This document shows, piece after piece, positions 47,488 through 53,213 of a stretch of 64,000 nucleotides of DNA. The translations under genes and the position numbers were made by a program. Where the stretch lies: the NCBI GenBank assembly GCA_011835815.1, contig GCA_011835815.1_3615.1. The stretch is one strand, 5' to 3'. Below the pieces are notes generated by a model, which worked only from the letters and a program-made list of their open reading frames with translations, searched no databases and was not told where the DNA came from. Numbering within the stretch: the first letter of the stretch is position 1; each line of letters opens with the position of its first letter. Origin of the DNA: a phage.

Positions 47488-47534
47488 TCCCTGCTATTTT
47501 AAAGAAAATTGCCACACAAGGAGAATCAGGAGAT

Positions 47535-47885
47535 ATGAAAGATGGGGATAAGCTGCTATATCTTAAAGTCCCCCTTGAAATACTGTCTATGTCAAAAGTT
47601 TTGAATGACACAACTGGGGAGGTTGTTGTTCTTGACTTATATGACAAGATCGTATACTGCTACCTGCACAACTGGTATAAGCTTGGAGGAAATTCACGCT
47701 TCACACCCAGCACAAGGAAAATTGCAGCAGATGTTGGGATAAAGAAAACAAAAGCAGCAGCGTGCGTTAAAACTTTAGAATGTGCAGGAGTGGTTGAAAT
47801 ATCCACACAAGGGAGAGGTAAAAGATGTACATTTTCCAAAGTTTTGCCACCAGAAGAGGTTATTCGAATGTCAACAACTGGTTAG
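47535..47885 (+). CDS. putative winged-helix DNA-binding protein
   Basis: 116 aa; TRKIAADVGIKKTKAAACVKTLECAGVV is HTH-like; directly upstream of the iteron array. Confidence 0.45.
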   Translation: MKDGDKLLYLKVPLEILSMSKVLNDTTGEVVVLDLYDKIVYCYLHNWYKLGGNSRFTPSTRKIAADVGIKKTKAAACVKTLECAGVVEISTQGRGKRCTFSKVLPPEEVIRMSTTG

Positions 47886-47959
47886 ACCAGTAAAAACTTA
47901 AATATCTGTACTATAAGGATTCGTATGTTTTATGTTCGCTCTGGAACAGAGGTCAGTAA

Positions 47960-48042
47960 CTGTCCGTGATACGGACACTACTGTCCGTCACGCGGACACA
48001 TCTGCCCGTAATACGGACACTAACTGTCCGTGATACGGACAC
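47960..48042. repeat. four 19-bp palindromic iterons CTGTCCGTGATACGGACAC at 21-22 bp spacing
   Basis: Copies near 47960, 47981, 48002, 48024 (two exact, two with 1-3 changes); each holds GTCCG-N5-CGGAC; AT-rich tract with ATAACTAAA x2 and GTAC-rich palindromes follows. Confidence 0.7.
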
Positions 48043-48180
48043 ATAAAGAATATAACTAAAATAACTAAATAATAAAAAATAAAAGATCTAGTACTTATGG
48101 TACTAAGTACATATACTTAACTTATGTAGAATATACTAGATCCTAAGTACCATGTTTTAAAATTATTACTTACTATAGGT

Positions 48181-48430
48181 AGTGTCGGCCCTTCATTGGC
48201 ACTCGCCTACGAGGGGCGAGATGCCGGGCCTCCTTGGTGCACACAATAACAGAAGTGCATACATGCAGGTCTGTTAACATGTGTGGGAGCGAAGCGATAG
48301 CGCAGGCCAAAGGCCGAGCACTGATGTGGACCACCGACGAAAGCTTGCCAGCGCCGTAAGGAGTCGGTTGAGAGTCTCCCGCGCGAGCTTGGATGAAGTT
48401 TATGTGTGGAAACTGACAAGAAGGCCCCTA
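48181..48430. other. GC-rich structured island, candidate ncRNA
   Basis: About 250 bp with much higher GC than surroundings, no + strand ORF, nested hairpins such as CTCGCC-UACGAGG-GGCGAG and GGCC-AAA-GGCC. Confidence 0.35.
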
Positions 48431-48545
48431 AATCGCTCCACAGCTATATAAACTATACCAGGTAATGCAATCGCACCAGTTTGATAGAAAAGCTCGTTAC
48501 AAAGTGATACAGTGAGTTTTTCTATAACTTGAAGAGGAGGCAGCT

Positions 48546-49124
48546 ATGGGTTCACGCAAAGATGACCGTGAAAAGATTGCAAAACGTTATCAGAATGAAG
48601 AACAGATGGAGAAAACTTTCAAGTGGAAGCCAGGTTTCCAGCGTAATCATTCTAACGCTCGTGATCGTAAGCATCCGGATAAGTGGTTAACACCGCCAAA
48701 TGATGGCATGCAGGTTGGTGATGAGAAGGAGCTGTCACCTGGAAAAGATGGCAACTACATTCGCACTAAGGAAGCAGGTCCAAAGGATGACAGCTATCTT
48801 GTAGATAAGGTTCTTGATGGTATTGATGTAGATGTTGACACTGCACGAAACCTTTTTCTTGGTTGGTATCGTACAGGGTTTTTCGACATCAAGGCTATTC
48901 GTCGTGTTTGTGATATTAAAAAGTCTGCCTATGATGATGACTCTCTACATCGCACTCTGAGACAATACTCAGAGAGATACGGTCATCCAGTTATCACTCT
49001 TGACGATATTAACGAAGTGATGTATCATGCAGAGGTTGTTGCAGGTAGATTCGGTGATGCATATCTCGGTATTCTTTCTGCAAAAGATGAGGTAATGTTA
49101 AATAAAATTTACTATGAACGCTGA
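48546..49124 (+). CDS. hypothetical protein
   Basis: 192-aa ORF with GAGGAGG SD. Confidence 0.6.
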   Translation: MGSRKDDREKIAKRYQNEEQMEKTFKWKPGFQRNHSNARDRKHPDKWLTPPNDGMQVGDEKELSPGKDGNYIRTKEAGPKDDSYLVDKVLDGIDVDVDTARNLFLGWYRTGFFDIKAIRRVCDIKKSAYDDDSLHRTLRQYSERYGHPVITLDDINEVMYHAEVVAGRFGDAYLGILSAKDEVMLNKIYYER

Positions 49125-49323
49125 GGAGCGCTTAATGAACAACCCGGTAGCAAAGAACTGTAATAAGTTCAACAAGTCTGCAATTCACACTGACAGGAAA
49201 AAGAGCTGGTCTCCTGACATTGACGAGGAGCTTGAGAGTTACTTTGAAGACCTGGTCACTAATGCAGATGAGGTTGCGATTAAAGAATACGCAGACAGGA
49301 AGGATAAGGCCGGAATCTGTTGA
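49114..49323 (+). CDS. hypothetical protein
   Basis: 69-aa ORF overlapping preceding stop. Confidence 0.45.
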   Translation: MNAEERLMNNPVAKNCNKFNKSAIHTDRKKSWSPDIDEELESYFEDLVTNADEVAIKEYADRKDKAGIC

Positions 49324-49399
49324 CAAAAATAGTGTTACCTGATAAGATCTGCAATATGATGTGATGCAATTTTAACTTACGAGGTCTACAGGTAATGCT

Positions 49400-49642
49400 A
49401 TGTTTAAGGTTAAGCTCGTTTTTCGTTCCATGAATGAGGATTATTTAGAAGATGAAGGTGAATTTCGTGCACTGGATGATGCAATAGATTTTGCCAACGA
49501 CTTAGCTTGTATGAATACAGGTTATGGGCTATGTTGTTGGGATGGTGGTGTTCAGATCGGTGATAGCAAGATCTTCTACTTCTACCCTGAGCCTGATAAC
49601 AAACAAATTAAGTATGTTTTATTTATTTGTGCTTTACAATGA
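49400..49642 (+). CDS. hypothetical protein
   Basis: 80-aa ORF. Confidence 0.45.
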   Translation: MFKVKLVFRSMNEDYLEDEGEFRALDDAIDFANDLACMNTGYGLCCWDGGVQIGDSKIFYFYPEPDNKQIKYVLFICALQ

Positions 49643-49699
49643 GGTTGTTTTCGTGTATCATGATGAATATCCAATTTAAAGATGAATTTGATGGCTTTA

Positions 49700-49930
49700 T
49701 CTCTGGATGCTTTGAAACAGGGTTCGGAGAAGGCTGAGTTCCCTTAGAGGGCTTGATAGTGCACCACACTTAAAATGGTAGGGGCAGCCAGCACATGACG
49801 ATGTGACCCCAGCCAACCTGTAATAAGGTCGAGCCTGAGCGCGGTAATGGGTATAGCTGGAAAACCCACTTGTTGGGTCTTGCTGGTCCAGGACGCTGGA
49901 CAAGTCGCAGGGAATACCACCCTGCGGCGA
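49700..49930. other. second GC-rich structured island, candidate ncRNA
   Basis: About 230 bp GC-rich, no + strand ORF; all three - strand frames stay open (few stops), as expected for GC-rich non-coding sequence. Confidence 0.3.
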
Positions 49931-49932
49931 AC

Positions 49933-49961
49933 TTGACAATCAGTATTTGCTGTGATAAAAT
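49933..49961 (+). promoter_or_regulatory. sigma70-like promoter
   Basis: TTGACA-N17-TAAAAT upstream of the 49990 gene. Confidence 0.55.
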
Positions 49962-49989
49962 CCACCTATCACGTGATAATGGAGGAAAC

Positions 49990-50328
49990 ATGGCGGATAC
50001 AACTAAAAAGCGTCGCCGTAGAGGCAGACCTCTGAAAGAGGAGTCCAACGCCATTCAGCTAGAGAAGAACATCCTTGATATGAAGGAATCTTTTATAGCG
50101 ATGGTTCCAGAAGCTCATAAAGTTTTAAGAGAGCTGATGTTGGACCCGAAAACCAAACAAAATATTCGTCAAAGCATTGCAGAGTATGTTCTTGATAAGG
50201 CAGACCGAATGCAGGAAGAATATGATGAGATGTTTGGTGAAGAGGAAGAGGTGGTAGTAGAAGAGGCTGAAAAACCAGCACCTTTTATGCCGTTTACCAC
50301 AGAAATACAGCCTGTTAGCAATAGCTAA
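49990..50328 (+). CDS. hypothetical protein with basic N-terminus and acidic C-terminus
   Basis: ATG at 49990 with GGAGGA SD (track ORF starts 49870); MADTTKKRRRRGRPLKEE. Confidence 0.55.
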   Translation: MADTTKKRRRRGRPLKEESNAIQLEKNILDMKESFIAMVPEAHKVLRELMLDPKTKQNIRQSIAEYVLDKADRMQEEYDEMFGEEEEVVVEEAEKPAPFMPFTTEIQPVSNS

Positions 50329-50337
50329 AATATTTTC

Positions 50338-50366
50338 TTGACAAACTTTGCTTAACAGTGTAATAT
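50338..50366 (+). promoter_or_regulatory. sigma70-like promoter for the tRNA cluster
   Basis: TTGACA-N17-TAATAT about 60 bp upstream of the first tRNA. Confidence 0.55.
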
Positions 50367-50424
50367 TGTAAACATGGTCTCCCACCTTTTCTGGCGGCTA
50401 AGGTGTAAAAGAAAGCCACCCAGT

Positions 50425-50499
50425 GCCCTGTTAGCTTAGTGGATAAAGCAGCGGCCTTCTAAGCCGTTGACACTGGTTCGAGTCCAGTACGGGGTGCCA
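50425..50499 (+). tRNA. tRNA-Arg (anticodon UCU)
   Basis: Hand-folded cloverleaf: acceptor GCCCTGT/ACGGGGT, anticodon loop CTTCTAA, T-loop GGTTCGAGTCC, encoded CCA. Confidence 0.75.
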
Positions 50500-50629
50500 A
50501 GTTCTTTTTAATGTAGCTTACTTTAGCAGAGTAAATCTTCGGCAAGTGGCGGTAACCACTTTACCGATACCTCATAGTTAGTGGTGAGAACACTAGCTAT
50601 TTTAAAAAGAATTTAAATATTAGTATTTA

Positions 50630-50717
50630 GGTGAGTTAATTCCGTAGGGGTAGCGGGGCAGACTGTAAATCTGTTATCATTGCGATTCGGGTGGTTCGAC
50701 TCCATCACTCACCACCA
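50630..50717 (+). tRNA. tRNA-Tyr (anticodon GUA), class II
   Basis: Acceptor GGTGAGT/ACTCACC, anticodon arm GCAGA-CTGTAAA-TCTGT, long variable arm, T-loop GGTTCGACTCC, CCA; D-arm register uncertain. Confidence 0.65.
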
Positions 50718-50821
50718 AATTTATATTTTTAAATGCATAAATCATACAGATAATGGCATTGATATTTATCGTCGTTTATACTAGTCACTAACTGCTCGAA
50801 AATCAGTGTCATTATCAGTAT

Positions 50822-50912
50822 AATTTATAAAGGAGGGTAGGGAGCAATGGTGCTCAAGCGGTCTTGAAAACCGCCCCGTTGAGGATGACTCGATGATGGT
50901 TCGATTCCATTA
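50822..50912 (+). tRNA. tRNA-Ser (anticodon UGA), class II
   Basis: Acceptor GGAGGGT/ACTCTCC, anticodon arm GCGGT-CTTGAAA-ACCGC, long variable arm, T-loop GGTTCGATTCC, CCA. Confidence 0.65.
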
Positions 50913-51020
50913 CTCTCCGCCACATTGTTGACCTTGTAATTAAGCGAAAGCCGGAAGCAGAACCGGATTATCAAATGTTACAGTCGTCATCGCCGACTAG
51001 CAACATGGTCAACATACTGA

Positions 51021-51119
51021 GCTAGGTAAGCCCTTTGGCAAGGGCGAGGATTTTTAATCCTGAAAATAGACGAGGTAGTCGTTGAATACATAGGTGGTTC
51101 GATTCCATCGCCTAGCACC
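51021..51119 (+). tRNA. atypical tRNA-like gene (about 97 nt), anticodon possibly UUU (Lys)
   Basis: Perfect acceptor GCTAGGT/GCCTAGC, D-arm GCCC-TTTGGCAA-GGGC, anticodon-like hairpin GAGGA-TTTTTAA-TCCTG, canonical T-arm; but about 30 nt inserted between anticodon stem and T-stem. Confidence 0.4.
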
Positions 51120-51124
51120 TTTTT

Positions 51125-51200
51125 GCTGATGTAGCACAATCGGTAGTGCAATTGATTTGTAATCAATAGGTTGTAGGTTCAAGTCCTGCCATCAGCACCA
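51125..51200 (+). tRNA. tRNA-Thr (anticodon UGU)
   Basis: Acceptor GCTGATG/CATCAGC, D-stem GCAC/GTGC, anticodon arm ATTGA-TTTGTAA-TCAAT, T-loop GGTTCAAGTCC, CCA. Confidence 0.75.
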
Positions 51201-51201
51201 A

Positions 51202-51276
51202 GGCCCTGTAGCTGGAAGGTTCAAGCAAGCGACTCATAATCGCCAGACGGTGGTTCAATTCCACCCAGGGCCACCA
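51202..51276 (+). tRNA. tRNA-Met or Ile2 (anticodon CAU)
   Basis: Acceptor GGCCCTG/CAGGGCC, anticodon loop CTCATAA, T-loop GGTTCAATTCC, CCA; not initiator-like. Confidence 0.7.
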
Positions 51277-51287
51277 AATAGTAAATA

Positions 51288-51364
51288 CTCCGCGTAGCTC
51301 AGCTTGGTAGAGCGCCTGATTTGGGATCAGGAGGTCGAGTGTTCGAATCACTCCGTGGAGACCA
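51288..51364 (+). tRNA. tRNA-Pro (anticodon UGG)
   Basis: Acceptor CTCCGCG/CGTGGAG, D-stem GCTC/GAGC, anticodon arm CCTGA-TTTGGGA-TCAGG, T-loop GTTCGAATC, CCA. Confidence 0.75.
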
Positions 51365-51410
51365 CTTTCAGTTATACTTTAAACATATACAAACAAAAGG
51401 AACCTTTAAA

Positions 51411-51680
51411 ATGTATACACTTAAAATTGTAGAGCGTGTAAATCCAACCCATACCGTAGATTTTCGTGACGATTTCAATCCTCTGGCTGTAAATCTTCGA
51501 GAGTCATATCATGAACTCAGCTGCGATGCAGTGGTGGTCTTTTTTGAAGACAACTCTGAAGGGGCAGTAGCTTGTGTTGTTGATAGTGAGCAGAAGTTTT
51601 ATATTTACAGAGATGTAGATGCATACTTGATGAATGAAAATGCAGTTACTGTTAGAATCATCCACCGAGTGCCTCGATAA
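51411..51680 (+). CDS. hypothetical protein
   Basis: ATG at 51411 (track ORF starts at TTG inside tRNA-Pro); 89 aa; terminator follows. Confidence 0.5.
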   Translation: MYTLKIVERVNPTHTVDFRDDFNPLAVNLRESYHELSCDAVVVFFEDNSEGAVACVVDSEQKFYIYRDVDAYLMNENAVTVRIIHRVPR

Positions 51681-52184: not shown

Positions 52185-52468
52185 GAGTTGCTGCACTGTT
52201 TATTGTGTGCTTTTTATTATGTGGGTGTGCAACCAGCGTTGAGAGAGAATACAAGATTGACCCTCCAGATGTAGGAAGGTTGATTGTTAAACCCCCGGAA
52301 GGTGCCATGAAACCACCTGCTAAAGCTATACCTTTGAAGAAAGGTGCTCCAGATGCAGTAAATTCTGGCATTATGAGGGATAATAATTTGTCTTGTAGCA
52401 ATGATAGAGCTAAATTGATCATTTTGCAAGACTATATTAGAACACTGTTTCCAAAGGAGAGAGGTTAA
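52181..52468 (+). CDS. o-spanin (Rz1-like outer membrane lipoprotein)
   Basis: 95 aa; signal peptide with lipobox-like LLCGC, Pro-rich mature region; start overlaps i-spanin stop (ATGA). Confidence 0.6.
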   Translation: MRVAALFIVCFLLCGCATSVEREYKIDPPDVGRLIVKPPEGAMKPPAKAIPLKKGAPDAVNSGIMRDNNLSCSNDRAKLIILQDYIRTLFPKERG

Positions 52469-52893
52469 TGTCTAAGATTTACGGACCGTGTTCTGAAAAG
52501 CAGAAGATGATCCTCGAAAACGATGCAGATATTTTGGTAATCGGCGGTGCCGCAGGGTCTGGCAAGTCGTTCCTCTTGCAGTTGATGCCGCTTAAAATTA
52601 TTGATGACCCCCACAGCTCTGTGGTTATGTTCCGAAGAACAACCCCACAGTTGGAAGGTGAGGGTGGGCTATGGCCTAAAGCAGTAGCTATTTATAGTGA
52701 TCTGCCTGAAAACATTAAGCCAAAGTTCAGAGAGAAGGATCATAAGTTCATTTTCCCACGGTTTGATCCGAGCACTGGCAAGTGGGATAGAAGCAAAAAG
52801 GGAGCTGTTGTAAAATACTGCCACATGGAGTATGTCCAAGATAAGCTTAACCATCAAGGTCTTGAGTACACCATGGTTTGCTTCGATGAGGGT
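52468..52893 (+). CDS. terL: terminase large subunit, exon 1 (ATPase N-terminus)
   Basis: Walker A VIGGAAGSGKS and Walker B-like MVCFDEG; reading frame is broken by a stop just after FDEG where the intron begins. Confidence 0.8.
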
Positions 52894-53213
52894 TAATTTG
52901 TAGCTCTCGTAAAACCTCCCTAATTGCGGGGAAATCTTTACTATTAATACCACCAACCTGTCATGGTAACATGATAGAGGCTTCGAAGAGAGATCGAAGG
53001 TATGGTAACAGTGTGTTAATTTAGATAATCCGCAGCGAAGCATCCGAGAGGATGAACGTTCAACGACTAGTCGAAAGACGTAGAATCAAGCGATTCGAAA
53101 CGGGAGGGTAAGCGGTTGTTGTCGCTTATAAGATATAGTCTGGTCTGCATGGAGACATGCAGCTGCCTGAAAAATGGCGGGGCAAGACTAGCGACCTTGC
53201 CCGAACATAGACG
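52894..53213 (+). other. group I self-splicing intron (no ORF) within terL
   Basis: Conserved core elements in order: P AATTGCGGGGAAA, Q AATCCGCAGC, R GTTCAACGACTA, S AAGATATAGTC; exon ends in U that can pair with internal guide GCTCTC; intron ends in G; P9-like hairpins; boundaries +/- 3 nt. Confidence 0.8.

Follow-up and report, generated by a model that had tools for sequence, protein, structure and literature searches.

The window (the whole 64,000-nucleotide stretch of phage DNA that was analysed) comes from an rV5-like phage of the genus Vequintavirus. Its 701 bases around the locus studied here share 98-99% identity with rV5-like Escherichia phages of that genus, such as HdK5, and all genes neighbouring the locus lie on the + strand. 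A small 32-codon ORF (49639-49737, +), annotated as a CDS in HdK5 and differing only synonymously in the related locus L216, runs into a G+C-rich island (49700-49930). At the end of the island lies a near-consensus predicted sigma-70 promoter (TTGACA-17-TAAAAT, 49933-49961, +; 11 of 12 positions plus a TG extension), as had been claimed in the initial annotation of this DNA. This site is the best promoter match across 47500-51500 and is predicted to be serving the 112-aa gene that follows (49990-50328, +; phrog_3330), a gene found inside the tRNA cluster throughout the Vequintavirinae. The phage tRNA cluster of the window (50425-51364, +) comes next, with its first tRNA, Arg-UCU, beginning 578 nt past the conserved core described below. 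Within this cluster ARAGORN reports, at 51021-51119, a tRNA-like gene of 99 nt whose anticodon has four bases (atcc) and which is annotated as tRNA-OTHER in HdK5. The HdK5 equivalent of 49738-49991 carries no annotation and is found between small hypothetical genes and the 112-aa gene.

The initial annotation had described the island as differing in composition from its surroundings, as having no + strand ORF and as open in all three - strand frames. Its composition was confirmed, with a G+C content of 54.5% over 49700-49930 (231 bases) compared to a mean of 42.8 ± 3.7% (sd) for the window's 230-nt windows, 0.24% of which match or exceed the island. The description of its frames needed adjustment. 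Each + strand frame contains several stops, but the first ~38 bases are coding; because 49700-49737 is the 3' end of the 32-codon ORF, the non-coding stretch, which would form the body of a structured RNA, was taken to be 49738-49932 (195 nt, +). One - strand frame is fully open and the other two each have a single stop near one end. The ORFs called mechanically on the - strand across the island (80, 73 and 94 aa) matched no PHROG family, and their frames are broken in close relatives, where 1 nt is inserted at 49741-49745 and 3 nt are deleted at scattered places within 49854-49862; the protein-coding frame that had been named as evidence against an RNA was thus not found. The nearest candidate transcript start for the RNA is a promoter-like site (TTTACA-17-TATCAT, 49633-49661, +; 10 of 12 positions) about 75 nt upstream of it in the window, a weak candidate because it lies inside coding sequence. 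No intrinsic terminator follows the island in the window.

The Rfam scan that had been proposed as a check matched the island to no family. With Rfam 15 at the gathering threshold, the whole window gave five tRNAs and one group I intron, all elsewhere, and at E-values up to 10 over 47900-50500 nothing was reported on the island. Homologous loci of 5-6 other lineages gave only tRNAs and an intron, with nothing on the motif. No tRNA cloverleaf was found in 49700-49930 by ARAGORN or by RF00005, both of which detect the neighbouring tRNAs. The group I intron of the window (52884-53162; Rfam 84 bits) starts at the 3' end of a terminase-large-subunit-like ORF fragment (52468-52896), an arrangement also present in L218, one of the type D loci introduced below.

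The island had also been likened to a first G+C-rich island at 48180-48440. This kinship was rejected, as the first island is confined to Vequintavirus (119 records), a different distribution from that of the island studied here, and the model of the conserved core finds one copy only in the window. The first island reaches a G+C of 0.585, has a fold z-score of -2.85 and lies directly after origin-like repeats. A replication-initiator-like HTH gene (47535-47885; phrog_12838) is followed there by four iteron-like direct repeats (47951-48042; spacing 21-22 nt, core CTGTCCGTGATACGGACAC) and then by ~130 nt of AT-rich DNA; the region 47535-48170 looks like a replication origin.

A core shared by unrelated phages

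When the island was compared with GenBank phages by sensitive blastn, 996 records were matched. The 119 Vequintavirus records among them match at full length, whereas the other ~880 match only ~45 nt (49809-49853; 84-98% identity) and are overwhelmingly T4-like (Tequatrovirus, Mosigvirus, and Klebsiella, Citrobacter and Shigella relatives), with one Vibrio phage also present. Eighteen records named 'Campylobacter phage' (MG0656xx) share ~98% identity with this E. coli rV5-like sequence and so would seem to be mislabelled or contaminant genomes.

To assemble the family, viral, metagenome and genome collections were scanned with exact and degenerate patterns and the matches filtered by script, which gave at least 49 distinct cores, 42 of which were aligned; looser patterns applied to viral contigs matched mostly by chance. 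Its carriers comprise T4-type A phages (T4, T2 and relatives); T4-type B phages (Mosigvirus, Jiaodavirus and others), some genomes of which hold two copies; rV5 type C (the window, L001, L023, L066 and L216); type D, an uncultivated rV5 sister group of 117-141 kb (L029, L031, L036, L079, L107, L146 and L217-220); ~46-kb Klebsiella/Aeromonas siphophages near BUCT541 and pIS4-A (L128, L329, L360, L380 and L423); L230, a 104-kb contig distantly related to Pseudomonas phage phiPMW; Vibrio phage F101 (L004); and the contigs L026, L405 and L432. Searches reaching 3.5 kb to either side of the orthologous gene did not detect the motif in Mydovirus, Seunavirus, Henunavirus, Certrevirus or phage W70. 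Host origin or mimicry was considered and rejected, as blastn gave no match to the motif in 5,426 complete E. coli genomes, and at 56 bacterial-genome loci with its most conserved 17-mer the rest of the motif is missing (26 bits or less, compared to 48-69 for members of the family).

The core that defines the family is 42 nt long (49811-49852, +; 66.6 bits, E 7e-20 with model R1) and is the sole copy in the window, where the next R1 match scores 12 bits. Together with a variable hairpin, Pa, it makes up the centre of the island (49781-49852). Its formula reads CC-N-ACC, UGUAAUAAGGUCGA, a short hairpin (G-C, C-G, x-x) and GGUAA-N'-GG, and it holds roughly 25 near-invariant bases. On the + strand of the window, helix P2 (49813-49815 paired with 49848-49850) encloses Px, ACCU-GUAAUA-AGGU (49816-49829), followed by CGA (49830-49832), the short hairpin Pc (49833-49842) and GGUAA (49843-49847). 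The alignment favours a predicted three-way junction P2/Px/Pc joined by CGA and GGUAA, because the Px hexaloop varies (GUAAUA, GUAACA, GUAGCA, GUAAAA, GUGAAA, GUAGAA and AUAACA) while its ACCU/AGGU stem is near-constant; the counts fit an alternative long bulged helix, in which ACC pairs with GGU, equally well.

As most core bases never vary, covariation within the core rests on few variable positions. Among the 42 distinct cores, the N-N' junction pair is AU in 26, UA in 6, CG in 5, UG in 4 and unpaired in 1, and the P2 pair next outward from it is CG in 25, GC in 2 and GU in 1. The second pair of Pc is CG in 35, UA in 3 and GC in 2, and the first pair of Px is AU in 41 and GC in 1. None of 500 shuffles attained either the covariation score or the observed number of doubly changed cells, and the covariation collapses if partner columns are shifted by one to three. 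Covariation in relatives, which had been suggested as a test for a structured RNA, was therefore found, with double compensatory changes in the junction-closing helix P2, in Pc and in three rV5-specific hairpins.

Some T4-like contigs carry two tandem copies of the motif ~110 nt apart (L412 5101-5243 and L429 9028-9171); in the second copy CGA is shortened to CA and Pc is fully Watson-Crick. The sole double change seen in the Px stem, from ACCU/AGGU to GCCU/AGGC, is in L412. The hexaloop had raised the ideas of a tRNA-Tyr anticodon-loop mimic and of a GUAAUA loop-to-tail pseudoknot, both of which are weakened by its variation. The motif also resembles the SRP Alu UGUNR motif and the 23S rRNA 1095 hexaloop; these resemblances were discarded, as the topology differs and no model matches.

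The hairpin Pa (49781-49810, +) consists in the window of an outer GGGG/CCCC stem, a 7-nt 5' internal loop and an inner CACAU/AUGUG stem. Pa lies directly upstream of the core in every lineage, with sequences that are unrelated between at least seven lineages. Its outer stem has 4-6 bp, its 5' internal loop 7-9 nt (longer in T4-type B, about 13 nt) and its inner stem 4-7 bp; Pa in L128-like siphophages is a single 5-6-bp stem with a 13-15-nt loop. Pa reads GGGAAU...AUUCCC in T4, AAAGG...CCUUU or AAAGCU...AGCUUU in T4-type B, GGGG...CCCC in the window, GGAAC...GUUCC in type D, GUACC...GGUAC in F101 and GCGU...ACGC in L026, and compensatory changes are also seen within types.

The anatomy of the window's version was drawn from the consensus fold of five type C sequences. 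An rV5-specific 5' module (49741-49770, +), present in types C and D and repeated in type D, runs from a hairpin CCCU-UAG-AGGG through CUUGAUAGUGC to a hairpin AGUG-CACCA-CACU. Its part CCCUUAGAGGGCUUGAUAGUGC (49741-49762) occurs once in type C and twice in type D, for example at about 52-75 and 175-200 in L029, with the second copy reading CCCAUAGAGGGCUUGAAAGUGC. Three hairpins follow the core on the + strand. H5, (A)CCCA-CUUGU-UGGG(U) (49864-49878), has its closing pair changed from AU to UA in L216; H6, GUCCAG-GACG-CUGGAC (49886-49901), covaries in L216, where two adjacent pairs are changed on both sides (UA to CG and CG to UA); and H7, a 9-bp hairpin GUCGCAGGG-AAUACCA-CCCUGCGGC (49904-49928), ends five bases before the start of the strong promoter and is no intrinsic terminator, as it has no U-tract after it. 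A further hairpin, H0 (49700-49730), corresponds to the 3' end of the 32-codon ORF and is kept despite the changes in L216. The + strand was taken as the functional one because the G-U pairs would turn into A-C in the complementary strand. Single-sequence folding gave modest z-scores (-2.3 on the + strand, -1.1 on the - strand) and the minimum-energy folds disagree between lineages, so that the structure rests on comparison and not on energy.

This comparison has shown the core to be conserved across unrelated phage families, with the predicted helices surrounding it covarying. On these comparative grounds we consider it firmly shown that the island is a conserved, strand-specific element with a predicted RNA structure, belonging to a family outside the curated library.

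Genomic settings of the motif

The T4 copy (NC_000866, about 64860-64939; L214 3860-3940) starts directly after the denV stop and is covered by the annotated N-terminus of Vs.8, with the annotated vs.8 start codon falling within the Pa loop. The resulting 40-codon N-terminal extension of Vs.8 is probably an annotation artefact, the T4 gene model being too long, because the frame has an in-frame stop in T2 and CrRp10. In T4-likes the motif occupies an unannotated gap that has an internal-protein or denV gene on one side and, on the other, a vs.8-like gene, the product of which is a P-loop-like protein (phrog_1488). The element is situated inside a polycistronic early region, 30-45 nt ahead of the start codon and with no promoter of its own; between it and the ribosome-binding site of the vs.8-like gene lies a second conserved hairpin, GCCA-NGGAA-UGGC. 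Phage PKO111 has two copies, each preceding a gene. As no vs.8 homologue is present in the window, vs.8 was rejected as a shared partner gene of the motif.

T4-type loci (e.g. L008, L006 and L005) also contain a conserved (A/U)UGGA(C/U) downstream of the core, with the hairpin lying shortly before the vs.8 start. GGA within a hairpin loop resembles CsrA-binding sites; CsrA-type GGA hairpins were set aside as a feature of the family, since they are found only in the T4-type 3' extension and not in the core.

Wherever a tRNA gene is present in the locus as well, motif and tRNA share the same strand. The core and the tRNA are 518-578 nt apart in rV5 types C and D, 132-719 nt in the siphophages, 343 nt in L026 and 1163 nt in F101 (132-1163 nt for loci outside the T4-likes, with the covered sequence of L230, L405 and L432 containing no tRNA), and about 6-10 kb apart in T4-likes. 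A consensus promoter (TTGACA-17-TATACT) ends ~8 nt before the RNA in type D, and its 39 bases are replaced in the window by the end of the 32-codon ORF; -35/-10 elements were read by eye just upstream in L432 and L405. Past the core of L230, at a distance of 25 nt, lies a textbook intrinsic terminator (GCCCGC-CACGA-GCGGGC-UUUUU), with an ORF 35 nt further on that depends on read-through, since this interval is too short to contain a promoter. L405 has a terminator-like element ~120 nt downstream, read by eye only. In the window, L230 and L405, the terminase module lies 1.2-2.7 kb downstream of the RNA.

The siphophage unit is closed by a GUUGUGAC/GUCACAAC stem and lies within an ORF-free tRNA region, which also holds other bracketed structured units, UGCUCUUA-containing repeats and tRNAs. 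Neither in the siphophages, including L128, nor in F101 does an ORF follow the motif, and tRNAs or other non-coding DNA are found there instead. Before the tRNAs of L423 (1920-2335), structured units are bracketed by GUUGUG.../...CACAAC stems, and the repeats AAGAGCAUU/AGUGCUCUU contain a boxA-like UGCUCUUA; this layout suggests that processing and antitermination in the style of an rRNA operon may take place here.

Possible functions of the RNA

The reading we prefer, at a probability of roughly 0.45, is that the motif is a discrete stable non-coding RNA, made and processed like tRNAs, with an invariant junction that recognises a conserved partner. Such an RNA would be transcribed from an early sigma-70-type promoter as a discrete stable non-coding species, and would be co-transcribed with the tRNA operon. 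Host RNases may excise it, as they do for tRNAs and for T4 RNA C and RNA D, and the invariant junction could then serve as the recognition surface for one highly conserved gamma-proteobacterial host partner, candidates being a component of transcription, translation or tRNA handling, or a small ligand. The stable-RNA reading is favoured because it alone is compatible with all of the contexts: the dedicated promoter, the intervening promoter, the L230 terminator, the bracketing stems and the missing downstream ORF in several lineages. Signals that would fit a terminator-ended small RNA gene are the terminator in L230 and promoters in type D and, as read by eye, in L405 and L432, whereas the window offers only the 10-of-12 promoter-like site and no terminator. 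Counted against it are the T4-likes, in which the motif, without its own promoter and so close ahead of a start codon, resembles a cis-acting leader, as well as the copy ahead of each of two genes in PKO111 and the read-through dependence of the L230 ORF. It is a more speculative and doubtful proposition that the core represents a new functional RNA class with a defined biochemical activity, whether it senses a ligand as an aptamer, binds and modulates polymerase or ribosome, or acts as a small ribozyme; unrelated virulent gamma-proteobacterial phages, T4 among them, would then have retained it nearly base for base because it engages an invariant host target. If true, no such RNA would have been defined in T4 before this one, which would have been overlooked there because it was annotated as the start of vs.8.

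The features of the T4-likes bring up the main rival reading, a cis-acting leader, either a riboswitch aptamer or a put-like processive antiterminator controlling read-through or translation, a possibility that we regard as unlikely on balance. Invariant junction nucleotides (~25 here) with freely varying stems are typical of aptamers, and an aptamer-like core is present, but in both rV5 types the near-consensus promoter intervenes between the RNA and the next gene. Downstream modules differ by lineage, with a terminator and then an ORF in L230 and maybe a similar order in L405, a conserved hairpin ahead of the ribosome-binding site in T4-likes, and tandem or double copies each ahead of a gene; a leader is further suggested by the terminase module that lies downstream of the RNA in three lineages (the window, L230 and L405). 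Against it, the siphophages, L128 and F101 have no following ORF, the genes downstream of the motif are elsewhere unrelated and without a common function, and the L230 terminator showed no alternative pairing with the core of the kind that an expression platform would need. The put RNA of HK022 is an example of a phage RNA that modifies polymerase unaided (PMC9378689), and the placement of the motif is of the put type, promoter-proximal, in type D and L432 but not in T4-likes; compared by description, the put RNA, two stem-loops of ~70 nt, is unlike the motif's junction. A role of the RNA as leader of the gene at 49990-50328 is not supported, because the strong promoter lies between the two. 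The original suggestion that the island may encode a structured RNA or be a regulatory leader is therefore supported in its first part, by the covariation and the Pa architecture, but not in its second as far as the 112-aa gene is concerned.

A self-cleaving ribozyme or processing signal that would cut polycistronic or tRNA-operon transcripts seems improbable to us. The motif is a small junction with many invariant unpaired or junction bases, is restricted to phages and lies between genes or between tRNAs, and several small ribozyme classes were found in such contexts, but no Rfam ribozyme family matched it even at E up to 10. Little credence can be given to a DNA-level element, such as a promoter upstream region, a protein-binding site, a recombination hot-spot or a mobile cassette. 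The element does abut a strong promoter in the rV5 types, and the T4-type regions are plastic and adjoin variable internal-protein genes; however, no promoter comes after the motif in T4-likes or siphophages, and the covariation of the helices, with its G-U pairs, fits one strand only. A core near-identical across families is what would be expected of a mobile sequence, yet no terminal repeats or target duplications were seen, and Pa and the 3' parts have fully diverged, which argues against a recent cassette transfer. A protein-coding origin, whether as a - strand ORF (80, 73 or 94 aa) or as a short + strand peptide, is the least credible explanation of all: open - frames exist and T4 annotates the motif as the N-terminus of Vs.8, but the three - strand ORFs have no PHROG match, the neighbouring genes are all on the + strand, close relatives differ by indels of 1 nt and 3 nt, the T4 frame is stopped in T2 and CrRp10, and type B phages have no AUG. 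Both DNA-level and coding explanations are thus disfavoured by the sequence comparison, through the one-strand covariation, the indels and the stops.

For a stable RNA of this kind, the nearest known counterparts are T4 RNA C and RNA D (rnaC/rnaD, species 1 and 2), which are small stable orphan non-tRNA RNAs of a virulent coliphage, transcribed and processed with its tRNA cluster (PMC3014915). The motif has no sequence or model similarity to them; when R1 was run with filters off over T4 61000-74000, 13 kb in which rnaC and rnaD are included, it matched only 64860-64901, and the T4 motif is ~6 kb from the tRNA genes. The nearest mechanistic precedent is provided by HK022 putL/putR, folded phage RNAs just downstream of sigma-70 promoters, which act without phage proteins on a universally conserved host machine (PMC9378689); a put-like action on such a machine would explain the invariant core of the motif. 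The put RNAs are ~70 nt, with two long stem-loops and a triplex, and are known only from HK022-like lambdoid phages, whereas the motif is a hairpin plus a junction, is often not promoter-proximal and is duplicated in some genomes. It shares with purine-type riboswitch aptamers a closing helix, two hairpins, conserved junction strands and variable stems, and like these riboswitches it precedes terminators or ribosome-binding sites in some lineages. Unlike them, it has an invariant ACCU/AGGU stem, no consistent gene class and no evident switching helix, and no Rfam riboswitch model matches it. ROOL and GOLLD are, like the motif, orphan structured RNAs mainly of phages and prophages, and they often adjoin tRNA genes. 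They differ in being 500-800 nt long, in occurring in Gram-positive and lake metagenome phages and in being represented in Rfam, compared to 90-250 nt, gamma-proteobacterial phages and no Rfam match for the motif.

No description of the motif was found in the literature on its sequence, on T4 or rV5 non-coding RNAs or on vs.8. The screen of Fremin et al. (2023; PMC10690425) clustered conserved intergenic regions from IMG/VR and reported 8,495 unnamed candidates, some of them near tRNAs; a search of its main text gave no passage on a T4 or rV5 motif, and the motif may be among the unnamed candidates. The RNA fold is new at the family level in comparison with Rfam 15. T4 ranks among the most thoroughly studied viruses, yet by 2010 none of its RNAs had been functionally characterised as a riboswitch or as a small trans-acting RNA, according to a review of that year (PMC3014915).

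These findings call for corrections to gene models, both of the T4 vs.8 start and of the spurious small ORFs annotated over the motif. They also reveal one RNA fold common to T4-like and rV5-like myoviruses, ~46-kb siphophages, and Pseudomonas and Vibrio phages. That families with hardly any DNA similarity have conserved it so deeply implies that a common host target exerts strong selection. The motif is a concrete target for study in genetically tractable phages and, lying next to tRNA clusters, gives a clue as to why phages retain RNAs other than tRNAs in such places.
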